This document shows, in pieces, positions 17,935-64,000 of a DNA stretch of 64,000 nt. The DNA is from a virus. Its lineage: Duplodnaviria > Heunggongvirae > Uroviricota > Caudoviricetes > Crassvirales. The translations under genes and the position numbers were made by a program. The notes below the pieces were generated by a model. The model saw nothing but the letters and a program-made list of their open reading frames with translations. It searched no databases and had not been told where the DNA came from. Where the stretch lies: IMG/VR virus record IMGVR_UViG_2974732849_000001; one strand, given 5' to 3'. Positions within the stretch are counted from its first letter, which is position 1. Every line of letters starts with the position of its first letter.

Positions 17935-17990
17935 TAAAAAAAAAATTAAAAAAAAAATAGGAGGAGGAGTAGAACTTAATCTACTCACTC
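17935..17990 (-). terminator. candidate terminator of the convergent minus-strand operon
   Basis: Hairpin GAGTAG, loop aacttaat, CTACTC at 17967-17986. Read on the minus strand it is followed by T10 and T9 runs (plus-strand A-runs at 17935-17957). Confidence 0.4.
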
Positions 17991-30726: not shown

Positions 30727-30735
30727 TCTTTTTTT

Positions 30736-31728
30736 TTAGTTGTTAATATATCCTCTTGCAATAAACTCCTCTTGCAGAGGAATAGCCAATTCTCTTGCCT
30801 GAGGATGTGCATTGGCTGCGCACCTCAATTCAAAGAAATGCCTCCAGTCTGAAACAAAGGCTGTCATAACAAGAGGTGATTTAATATCTAAAGGAATTAC
30901 TCTTCTTGCTTGTTGCGGTTTCCATCCTAAAGAAATAAGTCTATTATAAGCCCATTGAGTAGCTAAATTTGCAAAATACCATGTTTCAAATAATTGAAAA
31001 TCATCTATTTTACCTGCTGATATTGAACAACACATATTTCTAAATATTTGGTCATCTGTTTTTCCAAAACAGTCTATAGTGTTAGAACTTTGTGTTTTAT
31101 AAAACTCAGGAGGCAAAATAATACTAAATTGATTGTTAAATTTATCTTTAGTATAATTACAATATCTTGTAGATTCTCTAGCGAATGAGTTAATATCCGA
31201 CTCCATTTCTCTAGTCACTTCTCCTTCAATAGTGGGATGGTCTTCATCTATGGCTCTATGTCTAAGAAAAGATTCTCCAGTAACTCTATCACAAGTAAAC
31301 TGGACAGTGATTCTTTTCTCGTGATATTCTGTAGGTTCACAAATATATTGTAAATCGTCAAGCCAATCATTCTCTACTAGTACTCTAAGATTAGTAGTAA
31401 CATATAGGTATATACCATCATCACTTGTTACTGAGTAAGAATTATATTCATATTTTTCCAACTTATTAAAATACTCTTCTTCACCATCTTCAGGATGTAT
31501 ATACCTATTTATGACCTCTGTTTCACATTTAAGATACACAGTACCATGTTCAAGCATAGCACCATGACCACTTGCAATCATCCTATCAACAAATGCTTTA
31601 GCAGTGCCTTCTGCTATCTTGTCTTCTGACTTATAGCATACTCTACCTGCTCCCTCTATCTGTTTATATACTCCTTCAAGTCCAGAAGGTTGTTCCCGTA
31701 TCTCAAATGATGGTTTAATCAATTTCAT
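30736..31728 (-). CDS. thyX: flavin-dependent thymidylate synthase ThyX-like (with insertions)
   Basis: N-terminal AGRVCYKS...SGHGAMLEH matches the ThyX signature (aRvcy.s...gHes.lEH). An RHR triad is present (FLRHRAIDE). Confidence 0.5.
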   Translation of the reverse strand: MKLIKPSFEIREQPSGLEGVYKQIEGAGRVCYKSEDKIAEGTAKAFVDRMIASGHGAMLEHGTVYLKCETEVINRYIHPEDGEEEYFNKLEKYEYNSYSVTSDDGIYLYVTTNLRVLVENDWLDDLQYICEPTEYHEKRITVQFTCDRVTGESFLRHRAIDEDHPTIEGEVTREMESDINSFARESTRYCNYTKDKFNNQFSIILPPEFYKTQSSNTIDCFGKTDDQIFRNMCCSISAGKIDDFQLFETWYFANLATQWAYNRLISLGWKPQQARRVIPLDIKSPLVMTAFVSDWRHFFELRCAANAHPQARELAIPLQEEFIARGYINN

Positions 31729-32130: not shown

Positions 32131-32147
32131 TTTCTTTCTTTTTTTTT

Positions 32148-32336
32148 TTAACCGGCAGTCTTTTTCAAGGCCCTTATACCATACTCTCTGACTCCAATTA
32201 GTTTGCGTTTATGAAAATTCTCATCGAATAGTTTTTCAGCCTCAGAGATACTGTCGGCCTCTATAAACACTGTATCTTCAAACCCAAGCTTACCAATGTA
32301 GCTTATGAGGTAAAGTTTAATTTCTACAAGTTTCAT
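32148..32336 (-). CDS. hypothetical small protein
   Basis: 62-aa ORF. ATGA overlap with the upstream micro-ORF. Confidence 0.35.
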   Translation of the reverse strand: MKLVEIKLYLISYIGKLGFEDTVFIEADSISEAEKLFDENFHKRKLIGVREYGIRALKKTAG

Positions 32337-32768: not shown

Positions 32769-33113
32769 TTACTCTTCTATCACCTCAAAATCATCAACAC
32801 ACCAACCTTTAAGGTCATTGTATTGGTCATTATCAAATTCTCCCTTTACATATTTGTAGGCATCTTGTGGAAGTGTAATTTGCTCTTCTACTGCCCTTTT
32901 AAGGTCACATTTAGAGTAGTCTATATCCTCAAAATACTCACCATCCTCGTCCTTTCCAGAGTCAGTTATGCTATAATCGGATACTTTAATCTTAACAGTC
33001 TTACTAAGTGTGACACTTACTGTAACCTCAATTTCCCTTTCAGGATTGTCAACCTGATTCCAGGGTGCATCCTTAGTATCTGCACCCGGAGGATAATATC
33101 CACTCTCAGTCAT
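32769..33113 (-). CDS. acidic protein, possible HicB-like antitoxin partner
   Basis: 114 aa, strongly acidic, sits immediately downstream of the HicA-like gene with an ATGA overlap. GKDEDGEYFEDID weakly resembles the HicB N-terminus. Confidence 0.3.
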   Translation of the reverse strand: MTESGYYPPGADTKDAPWNQVDNPEREIEVTVSVTLSKTVKIKVSDYSITDSGKDEDGEYFEDIDYSKCDLKRAVEEQITLPQDAYKYVKGEFDNDQYNDLKGWCVDDFEVIEE

Positions 33114-33319
33114 TTTTTTTTCTTTTTCTTTTTGAAGTCTGTTACCAAGTTGTTCTCTTTAATTAGTCTTCGAGCAATTACACATTCAAGATTTCTAGGT
33201 ATGCTAATATGCCTTCCCTTGTCATTTACATAGATAGCATGGTCTCCACTATGTCTGCTATAGCGGAAACCATTAAATTTTACTATCCTTATAAACTCCC
33301 TTGATGTATATTGTCTCAT
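33110..33319 (-). CDS. hicA: HicA-like (YcfA family) mRNA-interferase toxin homologue with poly-Lys C-terminus
   Basis: SREFIRIVKFNGFRYSRHSGDHAIYVNDKGRHISIPRNLECVIARRLIKENNL matches the HicA pattern (..GF...R..GsH..y.n..gr..tiPrH..l....l..Ilkq.gl). The C-terminal KKKKKKK is coded by the A-tract that also precedes the next gene. Confidence 0.5.
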   Translation of the reverse strand: MRQYTSREFIRIVKFNGFRYSRHSGDHAIYVNDKGRHISIPRNLECVIARRLIKENNLVTDFKKKKKKK

Positions 33320-33323
33320 CTGT

Positions 33324-33545
33324 CTATTTTGTTCCTATATTCCTGACGAAGTCTTTGGTAATGTAAAATATGCTAACAAATATTATAATTATATTAAAGA
33401 TAGGAACCATAGAAAATCCTACATACTCACTTACTTGGTCATCATCTGTCTTATCGAGAAACTCTACATTATTGTAGTACCTTCCTAATAATGTGCAGAC
33501 AATGAGGGGTAAAATATAGAAGAAAATTATTATAAATGCTACCAT
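33324..33545 (-). CDS. small membrane protein (2 TM); ends with TAG
   Basis: 73 aa with two hydrophobic helices. Confidence 0.4.
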   Translation of the reverse strand: MVAFIIIFFYILPLIVCTLLGRYYNNVEFLDKTDDDQVSEYVGFSMVPIFNIIIIFVSIFYITKDFVRNIGTK

Positions 33546-37137: not shown

Positions 37138-37706
37138 TTCCTAATATAGGCTACCAATGATTTGAAATCAATCACATATTTGTACTTCTGAAAAAACAGG
37201 CTTCCCAATATACCATGTAATTGAACACCTGAATCTTCCTTAACCTGCCTGAATGCACTATCCATATTAAGTATGGTAAAAGTGTCTTCAAAGGAATTAT
37301 CCTTATACTTGACTTCCATGGTACATGTAGGCATGCTTGATTTAACCTCTCCATCTATACCAAAGGTATCCAAGTTTTCAGTGCATTCCTTGTAATCCAA
37401 ATCCTTGATAACAGACTTGTTGATTATAGAGTTATTGGCTCCTGTATCTAACAGGAAATTCAATTTCTTTCCATTATTATAGAAAGTTATTATGGGCAAC
37501 TCCACCAAGTCCATTGACTCTTTGAATGACATATGAGGCTCACCATTCCTTTTATGGTCTTCGACTGCATTGACAATCAAAGCTACAAAAGCTACTATAG
37601 CAAACGTAATTAATAGTTCCAATATAAACATCTTCCATGCTTTTTTTTTATTATTTAACTCCGGTAGAACCAAATCCTCCTCTATTCTCTTCTCCCAAAT
37701 CATCAA
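37134..37706 (-). CDS. membrane-anchored retropepsin-like (clan AA) aspartic protease; start possibly at the internal ATG at about 37631
   Basis: One TM helix (FILELLITFAIVAFVALIV), then LLDTGANNSII (DTG active-site motif) and ILGSLFF. An A9 tract sits just upstream of the internal ATG. Confidence 0.5.
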   Translation of the reverse strand: MMIWEKRIEEDLVLPELNNKKKAWKMFILELLITFAIVAFVALIVNAVEDHKRNGEPHMSFKESMDLVELPIITFYNNGKKLNFLLDTGANNSIINKSVIKDLDYKECTENLDTFGIDGEVKSSMPTCTMEVKYKDNSFEDTFTILNMDSAFRQVKEDSGVQLHGILGSLFFQKYKYVIDFKSLVAYIRK

Positions 37707-41002: not shown

Positions 41003-41012
41003 ACTTTTTTTT

Positions 41013-42056
41013 TTACAAAGTGTTTAACCACCCTTCAAGGTTATTAGATGCTGATAACTCGATGCCAATAGGTACTTTTGGTCTTGAAGTGAGATAATAA
41101 GAGAGTTCTCTTCCTATCTCAAAAGGACTCCTCATAATGATTTGACCATCTCTTCCAAACCTAAGTGTACCTTCTGCCTGAGTAAAAGGGCACCTCCACA
41201 CCAATGGAGTAAGTGTCCTCCTATTGACTACTATAAAGTCATAATCAAGCAACTTAAAACTACTGAAGTACTCATCCTTATCCATATTCTGCCTTATAAT
41301 AGCCCAATATAGTCTTGCCTGAATTTGATAATTCCAATCTACAAAGGATTTATAAAAATCCCACTCTGTATGGGAACTTGTTTTCAAATCTACTGGCTTT
41401 ACCCACTTCTCTTTATGGTTGACTATGATTAAGTCAGCCATGTTTCTATACTTTACACCATTGAACTCTCCTTTGAACTTCAACTGATAGAATCTTTCAA
41501 TGTCTGGTTCAAATGGATTGTCCTCTGTAAAGTAGAATTGAGTGGATTTGCTCTCTTTCAATGCTCTTACTGCATTACACACATCTTGGTAGGTCTGTGT
41601 GTCAAGTATAGTCCTATTACCTGCTACAAATAACAGATTATAGTATTCATATCCCTTTTCCTTAATTGCCCTAGCTCTAGTCTCTGGTCTCCAATTCATT
41701 TGATAACCCTGTTCCTCAGTCTCTTTGATAATTCTAGCATCCTGAATACTGCTCAGGTTATCACAGGAATCCTTATATTGACTGAACAGGGACTTTACTA
41801 TCCTCACAATAGAGTCAGGAATTGATGGGTATTCTGCCACCATAAATTCCTTATCAAATTCTGGCTGTCCTCCAGTAATGATGCTGTCCACAGCTCTACC
41901 AAATGTCAGGGATGGGGTATCCAGCTTATCAAACAGCTTATCTAGGTTATTAAACCCCTCCCTCTCATATCTTGCTATGGTAGAGTAACTTAAGGCAGGG
42001 TCTGCCCTATATGTTGCCTCATCCACATCCCAGCTTATTTCCTTTAAAGATTTCAT
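41013..42056 (-). CDS. RecB/Cas4-like PD-(D/E)XK exonuclease
   Basis: ADLIIV...VDLKTS...YQIQARLY, i.e. D / D-x-K / QxxxY motifs. Confidence 0.5.
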   Translation of the reverse strand: MKSLKEISWDVDEATYRADPALSYSTIARYEREGFNNLDKLFDKLDTPSLTFGRAVDSIITGGQPEFDKEFMVAEYPSIPDSIVRIVKSLFSQYKDSCDNLSSIQDARIIKETEEQGYQMNWRPETRARAIKEKGYEYYNLLFVAGNRTILDTQTYQDVCNAVRALKESKSTQFYFTEDNPFEPDIERFYQLKFKGEFNGVKYRNMADLIIVNHKEKWVKPVDLKTSSHTEWDFYKSFVDWNYQIQARLYWAIIRQNMDKDEYFSSFKLLDYDFIVVNRRTLTPLVWRCPFTQAEGTLRFGRDGQIIMRSPFEIGRELSYYLTSRPKVPIGIELSASNNLEGWLNTL

Positions 42057-43353: not shown

Positions 43354-43368
43354 TTCTTTTTTTTTGTA

Positions 43369-47687: not shown

Positions 47688-47726
47688 AATAAAAAAAAAT
47701 AGGGAAGGAATATAATATTCCTCCCC
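47688..47726 (-). terminator. rho-independent terminator between the 218-aa gene and the E1/JAB unit
   Basis: Minus strand: GGGGAGGAATAT/ATATTCCTTCCC hairpin followed by TATTTTTTTTTATTTTG. Confidence 0.6.
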
Positions 47727-48393: not shown

Positions 48394-48422
48394 GCTTTTT
48401 TTTTAATACCAAACTCTGCTTT

Positions 48423-49505
48423 CTATTCAATCTCAAAGGGCAAATCATCTCTATACTCTTCCCCTCTAGAAGAGGTAAATAAAGGAATGATTATTTTAAG
48501 GAACTCTTCCTTTCCCTTGGCCTTGAATAAATCTGAAATATCTTTTCCTTCATCAAAGAATGGTAATACCACATTAGTGAATCCTGTCTCTCTTGAAAGC
48601 CTCTCAGCATCTTCTAGGCCGGGCTTATCATTATCCAGACAAATAAATACCTTCTTGAACCTCCTGTTCAATTCACTTATTGCAGTACCACTCATTCTGT
48701 ATCCCTCACCTTGAATGGCAAGGGAAGGTATCCCTGTGTTAGACCATAGACATAGGGCATCCTTTAATGAGGAACAAATACATATTTGTTCCCCATATTC
48801 AGGTACCTTAGTCCATAGGCTTACCACAGAGCTGTCATGCTTGTTACTCCACTTATACCTGCCCTTATTAAAGGGTTGGTATATCTTTAGCGTAACTTTT
48901 CCTTCCTTATGTTCAACATAGGCATAGGCATATTTATCAGCTACAAACACATATCTATGACCATCTTTGAGGACAATTTTATGGGATATGGGGTAAACCT
49001 CTGCATATTTGAGCCATTCAACACTAATGCCATAAGACTCCCAATATTCTATATCATGTTTCCTCCATTCCCTAATCTTGCATTGTAGGTCTGAGTTGCT
49101 GTTATGACTGTTCATATCATTTACAACACATGGTGTATATGTTTGAATATTGCAATTACCCAAAGAAAACCTTTCCATATCCTTCCTGATTCTTGATAAG
49201 ACCTCACTATAACTACAGCTCCACATATGACCAAGGAGGTCAAAGATTCCTCCCCTGTCTCCTGTAGACAAATCTGTATAATATATCCTTTCCCCATTGG
49301 GGGAATAGAGACCAAAGGAAGGTCTTCTATCCCTTCTTAATGGGGAATTTATAATAGTGGGTACTTCTGTAACACCCAAATAATATGATAAAATATCTGC
49401 TTCTGTTACTCTATCCAAGATTTCCTTCAAACTCACAGAATCCTTGCCCTTGCTGAATGCCATGCTTTTTTTTTTAACAGTTACACTTACTTGCTCAAAT
49501 CCCAA
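48423..49505 (-). CDS. DnaG-like DNA primase (Toprim); true start probably the ATG at about 49463
   Basis: KVFICLDNDKPGLEDAERL is a Toprim DxD motif. An A10 tract directly precedes the MAFSKGKD start. Confidence 0.55.
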   Translation of the reverse strand: MGFEQVSVTVKKKSMAFSKGKDSVSLKEILDRVTEADILSYYLGVTEVPTIINSPLRRDRRPSFGLYSPNGERIYYTDLSTGDRGGIFDLLGHMWSCSYSEVLSRIRKDMERFSLGNCNIQTYTPCVVNDMNSHNSNSDLQCKIREWRKHDIEYWESYGISVEWLKYAEVYPISHKIVLKDGHRYVFVADKYAYAYVEHKEGKVTLKIYQPFNKGRYKWSNKHDSSVVSLWTKVPEYGEQICICSSLKDALCLWSNTGIPSLAIQGEGYRMSGTAISELNRRFKKVFICLDNDKPGLEDAERLSRETGFTNVVLPFFDEGKDISDLFKAKGKEEFLKIIIPLFTSSRGEEYRDDLPFEIE

Positions 49506-50945: not shown

Positions 50946-50989
50946 ACTTTTCTTGCTAAAATAAAAAAAAAATACTTAAATACTTGTTA

Positions 50990-59649: not shown

Positions 59650-59757
59650 GCTTTTTTTTTTGTTAAACTTATATTTACTTAATCAATAGGTTGTAAAAAA
59701 AAAGAAAGGTAAGGATATTGTTAGTATCCTTACCTTTACTATGAAAATATTTCTTAC

Positions 59758-60200: not shown

Positions 60201-60572
60201 TTATTTTAAACCTCCGAAGGTTTGTGCTACTACTTCAAGGGTAATACCCTCTCTCATTTTATCACAAATTACTTTCTGTAACAGTAAAGGAAGTTCTGAC
60301 ATCAAGGCTGTGATTACCATGCCCTTAGATTGGTCATCCTTTAGCCTGCTAAACTCAATCAGACAGTTGTCCAGTACATCCTCTGCACAACTGTCTCCCG
60401 TTGCTTTCCCAATCCCGATGACTGCTTCCCTGAACCTTTGTCTTGTTTTCAATGACATGTTTGCTCCCAGTGCCTTCTCTACTTTCTCTTTCAGGCCCTC
60501 TTCTTGTCTTTCTTGTTCCATCACTTTTTTTTTTGTAAAACAATATGTGTTAAATACCACTACTATTATCAT
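60201..60572 (-). CDS. hypothetical protein (real start probably ATG at about 60521)
   Basis: An A11 tract then GTG precedes MEQERQEE. Confidence 0.35.
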   Translation of the reverse strand: MIIVVVFNTYCFTKKKVMEQERQEEGLKEKVEKALGANMSLKTRQRFREAVIGIGKATGDSCAEDVLDNCLIEFSRLKDDQSKGMVITALMSELPLLLQKVICDKMREGITLEVVAQTFGGLK

Positions 60573-63824: not shown

Positions 63825-64000
63825 AATGTAATTTGTTAATTGTTAATAATGTGAATTTTTAACCTAAGGGGGTAGGACCCCCATGGGCTAAGTGATGGGG
63901 GAGGTGAGGTTGGTGTTACCACCCCTCATAGAAATATCACAAAAAAAAAATATTATAAAAAAAAAAAATTATTCTAAATTATTGTTATATATTTGCATAT

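Follow-up and report, generated by a model that had tools for sequence, protein, structure and literature searches.

The HicA-family gene and the acidic gene directly downstream of it in Asinivirinae crAss-like phages probably make up a two-part RNase module of the middle genes, the halves of which cooperate. As judged from the loci compared, the A-run at the junction varies naturally in length, joining the two predicted open reading frames (ORF1, the HicA-family protein, and ORF2, its acidic partner) or separating them. We regard HicA and its partner as one unit because fusions are common and fixed, the toxin-type gene never occurs alone and the charges of the two products are complementary (+13 for HicA versus -17 for the partner).

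The locus in phage cr85_1

The window, i.e. the whole stretch of 64,000 nucleotides that was analysed (IMG/VR record IMGVR_UViG_2974732849_000001), is 100% identical to uncultured crAss-like phage cr85_1 (NC_055883/MT774390), classified as Crassvirales, Steigviridae, Asinivirinae, Kahnovirus oralis. Both ORFs lie in a minus-strand gene block with the order DNA polymerase I, DUF1599, small ORFs, a phosphatase/kinase-like gene, small ORFs and thyX. In the RefSeq and GenBank records of cr85_1, ORF2 (gp045) is labelled hypothetical and the HicA ORF carries no annotation.

ORF1 (33110..33319, minus strand) encodes a protein of 69 aa with a pI of 10.65 and a net charge of +13, and ORF2 (32769..33113, minus strand) encodes one of 114 aa with a pI of 4.12 and a net charge of -17. 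The two genes share an ATGA overlap (33110..33113, minus strand), in which ORF2 starts with ATG at 33113..33111 and HicA stops with TGA at 33112..33110. Near the 3' end of hicA lies the A/G tract AAAAAGAAAAAGAAAAAAAAA (33113..33133, minus strand), which codes for the K7 tail of HicA and is also the A-rich leader of ORF2. The tract ends in an A9 homopolymer (33113..33121, minus strand, from the run list), and the ATG of ORF2 consists of the final A of this run and the following TG. The coding strand at the junction reads GAC TTC AAA AAG AAA AAG AAA AAA AAA TGA. An earlier note on this DNA had described a 69-aa HicA-like protein with an SGDH motif, an acidic 114-aa gene overlapping it by ATGA, and a KKKKKKK tail translated from the A/G tract that serves as the leader of the next gene. 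All of this was borne out: the HicA match exceeds the Pfam gathering score and is accompanied by a match to PHROG 353, with the motif at G25-D26-H27; the overlap lies at 33113..33110, in front of a product with the strongly acidic values given above; and the tail corresponds to K63-K69 at 33133..33113.

The HicA-family protein

ORF1 matched the Pfam family PF07927 (HicA_toxin) with 32.4 bits (E 9.9e-8), exceeding the gathering cut-off of 27, over residues 6-43 and profile positions 1-39 of 58, and also matched PHROG 353 'toxin' (E 1.5e-8). The SGDH sequence occupies residues 24-27, and the codons of G25-D26-H27, the G-x-H motif of HicA toxins, are located at 33239..33247 (minus strand) according to the translation. 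Residues G25 and H27 were invariant across 19 aligned relatives with identity down to 70%, and the 27 invariant positions in this alignment indicate strong purifying selection on the HicA domain. The G-x-H motif was retained in 112 of 120 split homologues and in all 69 fused homologues.

Residues important for toxicity or RNase activity are Gly22 and His24 in the HicA of B. pseudomallei, His28 in Y. pestis HicA3, His36 in S. pneumoniae and His23 in E. coli (PMC11594946). By motif position and Pfam alignment range, and not by residue-level superposition, the histidine of ORF1 is predicted to correspond to His24 of the B. pseudomallei protein and His28 of Y. pestis HicA3. N43 of ORF1 presumably stands where many HicA sequences carry a histidine (PxH).

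A HicA fold, on which the earlier note had made its reading of ORF1 depend, agrees with the AlphaFold2 (AF2) model of P0003, a natural fused homologue with a HicA part 94% identical to ORF1. The predicted order of elements is dsRBD-like, alpha-beta-beta-beta-alpha, with a helix at residues 6-15, strands at 19-23, 26-31 and 36-40, and a second helix at 45-55, at a pLDDT of only 54-71 in the HicA half. Sequence searches of PDB chains, with HicA alone and with the 19-member HicA profile, returned no meaningful match, and hhalign of ORF1 against an approximate E. coli HicA sequence gave no significant match. ORF1 is presumably an RNA-binding RNase with its G-x-H motif intact.

The acidic partner

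ORF2 contains 29 D+E versus 12 K+R and is acidic over its whole length, ending in a conserved W-x-V-D-D-F-E-V strand. It had no match in Pfam (E up to 0.1), PHROGs, NCBIfam or PADLOC. In BFVD it matched uncharacterised phage proteins alone, two of them from crAss-like phages. An exhaustive HMMER search (E up to 1e-3) placed ORF2 in a family of 475 clusters at 50% identity, nearly all of them stand-alone proteins of 90-130 aa. Aligned members of the family give the consensus xYPxGA-x4-5-APWNQ ... EIEVTVSxTLSKTVKIxVxDY ... DEDG ... DYSxCDL..AV..Q..LP ... DL..W.VDDFEV, in which YPxGA...APWN is the best conserved element. In ORF2 this N-terminal 'YPxGA-x4-5-APWN' motif is encoded by the PPGADTKDAPWN codons at 33057..33092 (minus strand; translation and family alignments).

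When 106 members of the family were scanned individually, none matched the HicB family; Pfam and PHROGs returned nothing, and NCBIfam and PADLOC nothing but noise. Neither in ORF2 nor in these 106 members did Pfam detect a C-terminal RHH or HTH DNA-binding domain. No sequence or fold match for the family was obtained in the PDB with the partner-family profile and with searches using the 30-aa motif peptide, and hhalign of ORF2 against an approximate E. coli HicB sequence returned a probability of 0.2%. The AF2 model of ORF2 has a pLDDT of 85.7. From the model of the fused protein, the secondary-structure elements of the partner are predicted in the order beta-beta-beta-alpha...beta.

Were the two genes a canonical type II HicAB pair and the 114-aa protein a divergent HicB antitoxin, one would expect hicA to come first, a stop/start overlap, a basic toxin and an acidic partner, and all of these are present; moreover, the order of elements in the partner can, we assume, be said superficially to recall the N-terminal domain of HicB. 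We nevertheless consider this reading highly improbable. The earlier proposal of a HicAB-like pair stands as regards gene order, overlap and the G-x-H motif, whereas the partner gave no HicB match in Pfam, no DNA-binding domain and no fold match. As neither a HicB fold signature nor a DNA-binding domain was detected in ORF2, an autoregulatory repressor is not predicted. By its sequence, ORF2 is not a HicB protein and is a member of a large uncharacterised phage family. We found no description of this partner family in the literature, and a non-HicB partner family of HicA appears to be new. The suggestions that the acidic protein is a DNA/RNA mimic, or that the pair acts as an abortive-infection decoy or an anti-defence factor, gained no specific support.

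Split and fused forms of the two genes

Among the best 120 non-redundant relatives of ORF2 (77-100% identical), 69 were single proteins of 180-184 aa with the layout HicA, K/R linker, Met and acidic domain. The Met preceding the motif was kept in these 69 and in every other fusion that we inspected. Both parts were present in 83 unique IMG/VR loci and adjacent in 80. Of the adjacent loci, 44 have ORF2 in the -1 frame relative to hicA, as does the window, 26 have it in the +1 frame and 10 in frame 0, and all but one of the frame-0 loci are uninterrupted fusions of 180-185 aa. Frame 0 is rarer than the one third expected under neutrality (binomial p 2.6e-5, loci counted irrespective of their relatedness), which could mean that there is mild selection against fusion.

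About 80 loci yielded more than 30 alleles of the tract. They include a series in which the context ATTAAAAGGAG-An-TAATGGAC is constant and the run length differs: with A8 the ORFs are fused into 181 aa (P0006, a protein present on at least 24 contigs of different samples), with A9 they are split at +1, with A10 split at -1, and with A11 fused into 182 aa (three samples). The neighbours of the window tract differ from it by AAG/AAA changes and by runs of A7, A8 or A9. Where the run is followed by ATGACTGA or TAATGGACAATTATAA, both shifted frames run into a stop at the ATG or soon behind it (within 8 nt for ATGACTGA), and in the TAATGGAC lineage both are stopped within 16 nt. Because of these stops, HicA either ends in a short variable tail (K7, K6ND, RRKKNNGQL and others were seen) or continues into the partner.

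The split seen in the window could in principle be a sequencing or assembly artefact, namely a homopolymer miscall in a gene that is always fused, as the frame difference sits in the A9 homopolymer, a classic site of error. This explanation has a negligible probability in our view, because tract lengths recur and alleles without a homopolymer occur in all three frames. The exact window tract was found in three other contigs (L003, L004 and L007), and each of A8, A9, A10 and A11 in several independent contigs or samples. There are also large clusters of split HicA proteins (e.g. P0121 with 224 members and P0141 with 394), and IAS virus is cleanly split at a junction that has no homopolymer. We found no description of a fusion/split polymorphism in the literature; a hypermutable A-leader switching the genes between the split and the fused state appears to be new.

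The A-run as a gene leader

Codons K63-K69 of HicA are AAA AAG AAA AAG AAA AAA AAA, and their last nine bases are the A9 run. The A/G tract at the junction is not a chance feature, because the window contains 18 A/T runs of at least 9 nt versus approximately 2.5 in mononucleotide shuffles. Runs of 7 and 8 nt number one and none, respectively, and the same bimodal distribution of run lengths, with a mode of 9-10, was observed on the coding strand of the 80 related loci. Ten of the 18 long runs are A9-A11 on the coding strand and end 0-8 nt before an ATG (30729-37, 32139-49, 37641-49, 41005-14, 43357-65, 48396-404, 49466-75, 59652-61, 60525-34 and the run between ORF1 and ORF2). Bacteroidetes mRNAs lack Shine-Dalgarno sequences, and adenines at positions -3, -6 and -11 to -14 promote initiation (PMC6847099). 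We infer that the A9 run is the translation-initiation leader of ORF2, and our preferred account of the poly-Lys tail is that it would be this leader read in the frame of HicA.

The same run invites the explanation that it is a dedicated site of transcriptional slippage or -1 frameshifting, which would set the ratio of free HicA to fusion, as in dnaX and the phage tail chaperone G/GT, which are models of programmed recoding. Within the A9 run, the heptamer A AAA AAA stands in the zero frame, and ORF2 is open at -1. In silico, insertion of one A into the window yields a 183-aa fusion and removal of two A's a 182-aa fusion, both built like the natural ones, and the same fusion would result if ribosomes slipped by -1 on this heptamer; fusion proteins are, moreover, clearly viable. 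Bacterial RNA polymerases slip on runs of about nine or more A/T, and ribosomes slide on the Lys codons of poly(A). Against this stands the lack of a conserved frame relation (44/26/10), and about half of the alleles do not have a run longer than six A's (the longest junction A-run is at most 6 in 40 of 80 loci). The junctions of crAss001 and IAS virus have no homopolymer, and A9-11 runs of this kind precede many unrelated genes, where recoding is impossible. At 5-9 nt downstream of the A9 run there is no stimulatory RNA structure; the sole nearby hairpin starts at approximately 22 nt after the run, outside that range, and is a by-product of Gly-Ala and Ala-Pro codons, while the whole 131 nt around the junction has a structure z-score of -2.56. 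Programmed recoding is accordingly an improbable explanation. From the earlier idea that the tract is a slippage site, we retain that natural length polymorphism changes the frame; the programmed variant fails on conservation, with three frames in use and many alleles devoid of a homopolymer. Read-through of the HicA TGA was considered separately and rejected, since by manual reading frame 0 leaves the partner frame past the TGA and ends after about 30 codons.

crAss001 Gp55, IAS virus and related phages

A tblastn search detected the same HicA clade in 37 GenBank phage records, with the APWN motif directly after it in all 37. Two further records, of cr111_1, contain the partner alone, without HicA. 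IAS virus encodes a 67-aa 'mRNAse' and a 93-aa partner that overlap by ATGA. Gp55 of crAss001 (YP_009910795; Kehishuvirus), annotated as 'HicA toxin (mRNAse)', is a fixed fusion of 146 aa consisting of HicA, KKLKKEKR, MSNAPLGADEDPRAPWN and a short acidic tail, and its HicA part matched Pfam HicA_toxin with 29.7 bits. The same match, over query residues 1-87, was found in more than 20 PhiCrAssBcn isolates and in the Kehishuvirus 'tikkala'. In the C-terminal half of Gp55, homology to the partner family was detectable in the motif only (hhalign, 18 columns, probability 93.7%).

The 'HicA mRNAse' of crAss001 is one of the middle genes, for which host RNA polymerase is the probable transcribing enzyme, and the protein was proposed to degrade host mRNA (PMC8375218, Shkoporov et al.). 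The C-terminal part of Gp55 and its two-part nature are not mentioned in that paper. The HicA annotation in crAss-like phages is thus already known, and the recognition of Gp55-type proteins as two-part fusions appears to be new.

Co-occurrence and gene context

Dependence between the two genes is one-sided: the HicA clade always occurs with the partner, and the partner often occurs without HicA. In IMG/VR loci found with HicA as the seed, the partner was downstream in 80 of 80; in loci seeded with the partner, HicA was absent from 3 of 80 (L070, L078 and L080). Among eight distant family members inspected, P0250 (57% identical) alone has HicA upstream. In the other seven contexts, the partner follows DUF3310, DUF1599, metallophosphatase or unannotated genes, and distant partners are usually still located between DNA polymerase and thioredoxin/thyX. 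Of the partner-family representatives listed, 147 of 150 had no HicA. This one-sidedness suggests that the partner is the older and autonomous component of the gene block and that HicA joined it later, and the occurrence of the family without HicA in many contexts suggests that it has a function of its own. Since the family is usually found without HicA, the earlier proposal that the acidic protein is an antitoxin did not hold in the sense of a dedicated antitoxin.

In two loci (L026 and L057), a gene for an I-HmuI-like HNH/NUMOD homing endonuclease is inserted exactly between HicA and the partner, and two others (L071 and L275) contain remnants of the same endonuclease at this position. These insertions are tolerated, indicating that tight coupling of HicA and partner is dispensable; they also explain the '139-aa' gene calls. 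The conserved adjacency could equally be plain synteny by descent.

These observations bear on a reading in which the two genes are independent neighbours, with HicA as a moron-like insertion beside a conserved gene of the replication module, products that do not cooperate, and fusions that are neutral or slightly deleterious accidents. We give it a limited but real chance, well short of even. It agrees with the mostly stand-alone occurrence of the partner (the 147 representatives and seven of eight distant contexts noted above), with the tolerated endonuclease insertions and with the proportion of fusions in IMG/VR, which is below one third. In addition, the AF2 model of the fused protein, with a pTM of 0.39 and a linker pLDDT below 50, predicts no confident packing between the domains. 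It is contradicted by the fixation of the fusion in cultured Kehishuvirus (crAss001 and the PhiCrAssBcn phages, more than 20 in number) despite the diverged acidic half, by identical fused proteins on at least 24 contigs from independent samples, by the absence of any member of the HicA clade without the partner (80 of 80 loci and 37 of 37 GenBank records) and by the complementary charges.

A working model of the module

In the reading that we favour, that of a two-part module with cooperating halves, the first part would be the small basic HicA-family protein with its dsRBD-like fold, presumably an RNA-binding RNase. The second part would be the acidic YPxGA...APWN protein of approximately 95-115 aa, an old and mostly stand-alone component of the replication/nucleotide-metabolism block, immediately upstream of which HicA was probably acquired. 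The two parts would be joined via the A-rich translation-initiation leader of the second, which lies inside the 3' end of hicA, where it encodes the oligo-Lys tail, and which seems to be one of many leaders of the type 'A9-11 + 0-8 nt + ATG' in this genome. Because the leader is a homopolymer, its length would mutate readily, placing the second part in the -1, +1 or 0 frame. In the shifted frames, hicA is predicted to terminate at or just after the ATG, and in frame 0, with no stop, one HicA-linker-acidic-domain protein of 180-185 aa would be made. Most likely the acidic part binds the basic HicA and restrains or directs it, which would take place in trans for separate genes and in cis for fused ones. 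In the middle phase of infection, the module may serve the cleavage of mRNA. Translation from the internal Met of the fusions may also yield the acidic part on its own, and in A9-A10 alleles some additional fusion product probably arises by transcriptional or ribosomal slippage.

A bolder version of this model would make the A-joint a true contingency locus of a virulent phage, at which slipped-strand mutation and expression slippage generate free HicA and a tethered, self-restrained form; the APWN family would then be a new and widespread class of proteins that neutralise or direct HicA, and the module would be used for host mRNA shut-off or counter-defence. We regard this version as unlikely.

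crAss-like phages are the most abundant viruses of the human gut, and we know of no role for most of their small middle genes. The 'HicA toxin' of crAss001 likewise consists of two parts, the second drawn from a large family outside Pfam and PHROGs, and on the preferred reading, that of cooperating halves, the module offers a concrete candidate for a non-HicB partner of HicA. Its split, fused and endonuclease-separated forms constitute a natural experiment on the coupling of a toxin-type RNase to its partner. The locus also calls for caution in annotation: the RefSeq record of cr85_1 lacks the HicA ORF, and gene callers disagree on protein size at this position, giving 69, 114, 139, 171 or 181-184 aa. 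Finally, the A9-11 runs are evidence of a selected gene-leader signal in these phages and, where such leaders overlap coding sequence, a source of frame instability.

Comparison with known systems

The closest relatives of the cr85_1 module are crAss001 Gp55 and the 'mRNAse' genes of IAS virus, cr116_1, cr106_1 and cr112_1. Gp55 belongs to the same HicA clade as ORF1 (about 64% identity), occupies the same place between DNA polymerase/kinase genes and thyX and, as in cr85_1, has a Lys/Arg-rich linker, a Met and the xPxGA..APWN motif after HicA. It differs in being a permanent fusion with a shortened and diverged acidic half, whereas in cr85_1 separate ORFs are joined by an A9 run.

Among type II HicAB systems, we compared E. 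coli HicAB, Y. pestis HicA3B3, and the systems of B. pseudomallei and S. pneumoniae (HicAB/HicBA) with the cr85_1 module (PMC11594946). Common to them are a small basic HicA with a dsRBD-like fold and G-x-H, and a toxin gene that comes first, with an acidic protein immediately downstream and a stop/start overlap. In cr85_1, however, the partner is not HicB, its family is far more widespread than the toxin, and the module is located in the middle-gene block of a virulent phage and not in a prophage, plasmid or chromosome.

With A-run recoding, exemplified by -1 frameshifting on A AAA AAG in dnaX and by transcriptional slippage in IS elements and Thermus dnaX, the module shares an ORF1 that ends in a slippery A-run and an ORF2 that is reached by a -1 shift or by insertion of one A. 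In the crAss-like loci, by contrast, neither frame nor run is conserved and no stimulatory element is present at the canonical distance.

Homopolymer contingency loci of bacteria undergo phase variation by slipped-strand mutation. The A8-A11 allelic series in an otherwise identical context, with a different coding outcome for each length, resembles them, but the outcome is two proteins versus one fusion, not ON versus OFF, both ORFs can be expressed in every frame, and the locus is found in a lytic phage. CapRel(SJ46) is a single-chain (fused) toxin-antitoxin module, and the in-frame alleles and Gp55 similarly place a toxin-type domain and a putative regulatory domain on one polypeptide. The domains are unrelated to those of CapRel(SJ46), and in the crAss-like module, unlike in that system, split and fused forms interconvert within one phage lineage.

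Sequence variation at the joint of hicA and the partner gene

In the proteins homologous to the partner (the acidic 114-aa product of the gene that overlaps hicA), two types of N-terminus were found, MTESGYYPxGAEHDPNAPWN versus MDNYNYPMGADTKDAPWN (proteins P0003, P0010, P0047), and these types occur shuffled against differing variants of HicA. One related locus carries a hybrid in which both motif halves are placed in tandem (L068:2934-3030). Together, the shuffling and the tandem hybrid point to recombination being frequent at the hicA-partner joint or close by.

In a megablast comparison of cr85_1 with bajarodcaudo virus 1 (PQ006092), a crAss-like phage from rodent faeces, the hicA-partner pair was the sole match of at least 85% (locus L002:4895-5557, megablast query positions 1161-1614), implying that it has been either unusually conserved or recently exchanged. 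In this relative the two genes lie in the same frame, yet are separated by a 97-nt spacer with stops. In one lineage (L275:1701-2243) the gene as called fuses HicA to about 115 aa encoded upstream, among them a zinc-ribbon-like CxxC...CxxC segment; the resulting 180-aa product may represent a real N-terminal extension of HicA or an over-extended call.

At two loci, a gene for an I-HmuI-like homing endonuclease (HNH/NUMOD4/NUMOD1) is inserted right at the boundary that separates hicA from the partner gene (L026:2502-2999 and L057:2457-2990). Decaying remnants of such a gene were found at L071 (about 1433-1735) and L275 (about 2260-2575), and a remnant of this kind leads to spurious calls of 139-aa, N-terminally extended genes (P0018, P0028, P0082 and others).

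A separate observation concerns P0001, a 171-aa variant known from one 4.3-kb Logan contig. The 173-aa phosphatase/kinase-like protein encoded in the same gene block as hicA contributes its N-terminal 45 aa; these are followed by the 3' part of hicA, translated in a different frame (…GNRLQKEKEKK), and then by the partner protein, 100% identical. This arrangement implies either that the 73-aa ORF described below and most of hicA were deleted, or that the contig is chimeric.

An RNA hairpin and a small upstream ORF

About 22 nt past the A-run at the joint, an RNA hairpin, CCGGGUGCAG-11 nt-UGCACCCUGG, can be formed on the minus strand (33059-33090), and the 131-nt region around it has a folding z of -2.56. 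Its arms are provided by codons of the conserved partner motif, those for Gly-Ala and for Ala-Pro-Trp. Since G-A and A-P codons are partly self-complementary, other lineages could form a comparable hairpin, as judged from junction sequences read by eye.

Directly upstream of hicA lies a 73-aa ORF without annotation (33324-33545, minus strand). Its product has two hydrophobic segments, and the ORF shares 7 nt with the 173-aa phosphatase/kinase-like gene. Using tblastn, it was matched in 23 locus entries, several of which share contigs, with 82-100% identity among the 12 matches listed. The ORF probably represents a genuine gene for a small membrane protein, absent from the cr85_1 record.

Long A-runs and gene leaders

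Long A-runs with no adjoining start codon are present on the plus strand at 17936-17957, 47691-47699, 50963-50972, 59695-59703 and 63941-63968. They include the pairs A10-TT-A10, followed by TAGGAGGAGGAG, and A10-TATTAT-A12, and inverted repeats adjoin several of them; these runs may be signals related to terminators, promoters or origins.

The A-run at the joint (33113-33121) is one of 10 minus-strand sites in the window with the recurrent leader 'A9-11 + 0-8 nt + ATG', the others being 30729-30737, 32139-32149, 37641-37649, 41005-41014, 43357-43365, 48396-48404, 49466-49475, 59652-59661 and 60525-60534. The lengths of A/T runs in the window are bimodal, with a short mode (68, 17, 1 and 0 runs of length 5, 6, 7 and 8, respectively) and a long mode (8, 8, 1 and 1 runs of length 9, 10, 11 and 12), and 80 related loci likewise show, on their coding strand, a second mode at 9-10. 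This bimodality, in both the window and the related loci, suggests that at least nine A's ahead of start codons are under selection, as an initiation region of the Bacteroidetes type.
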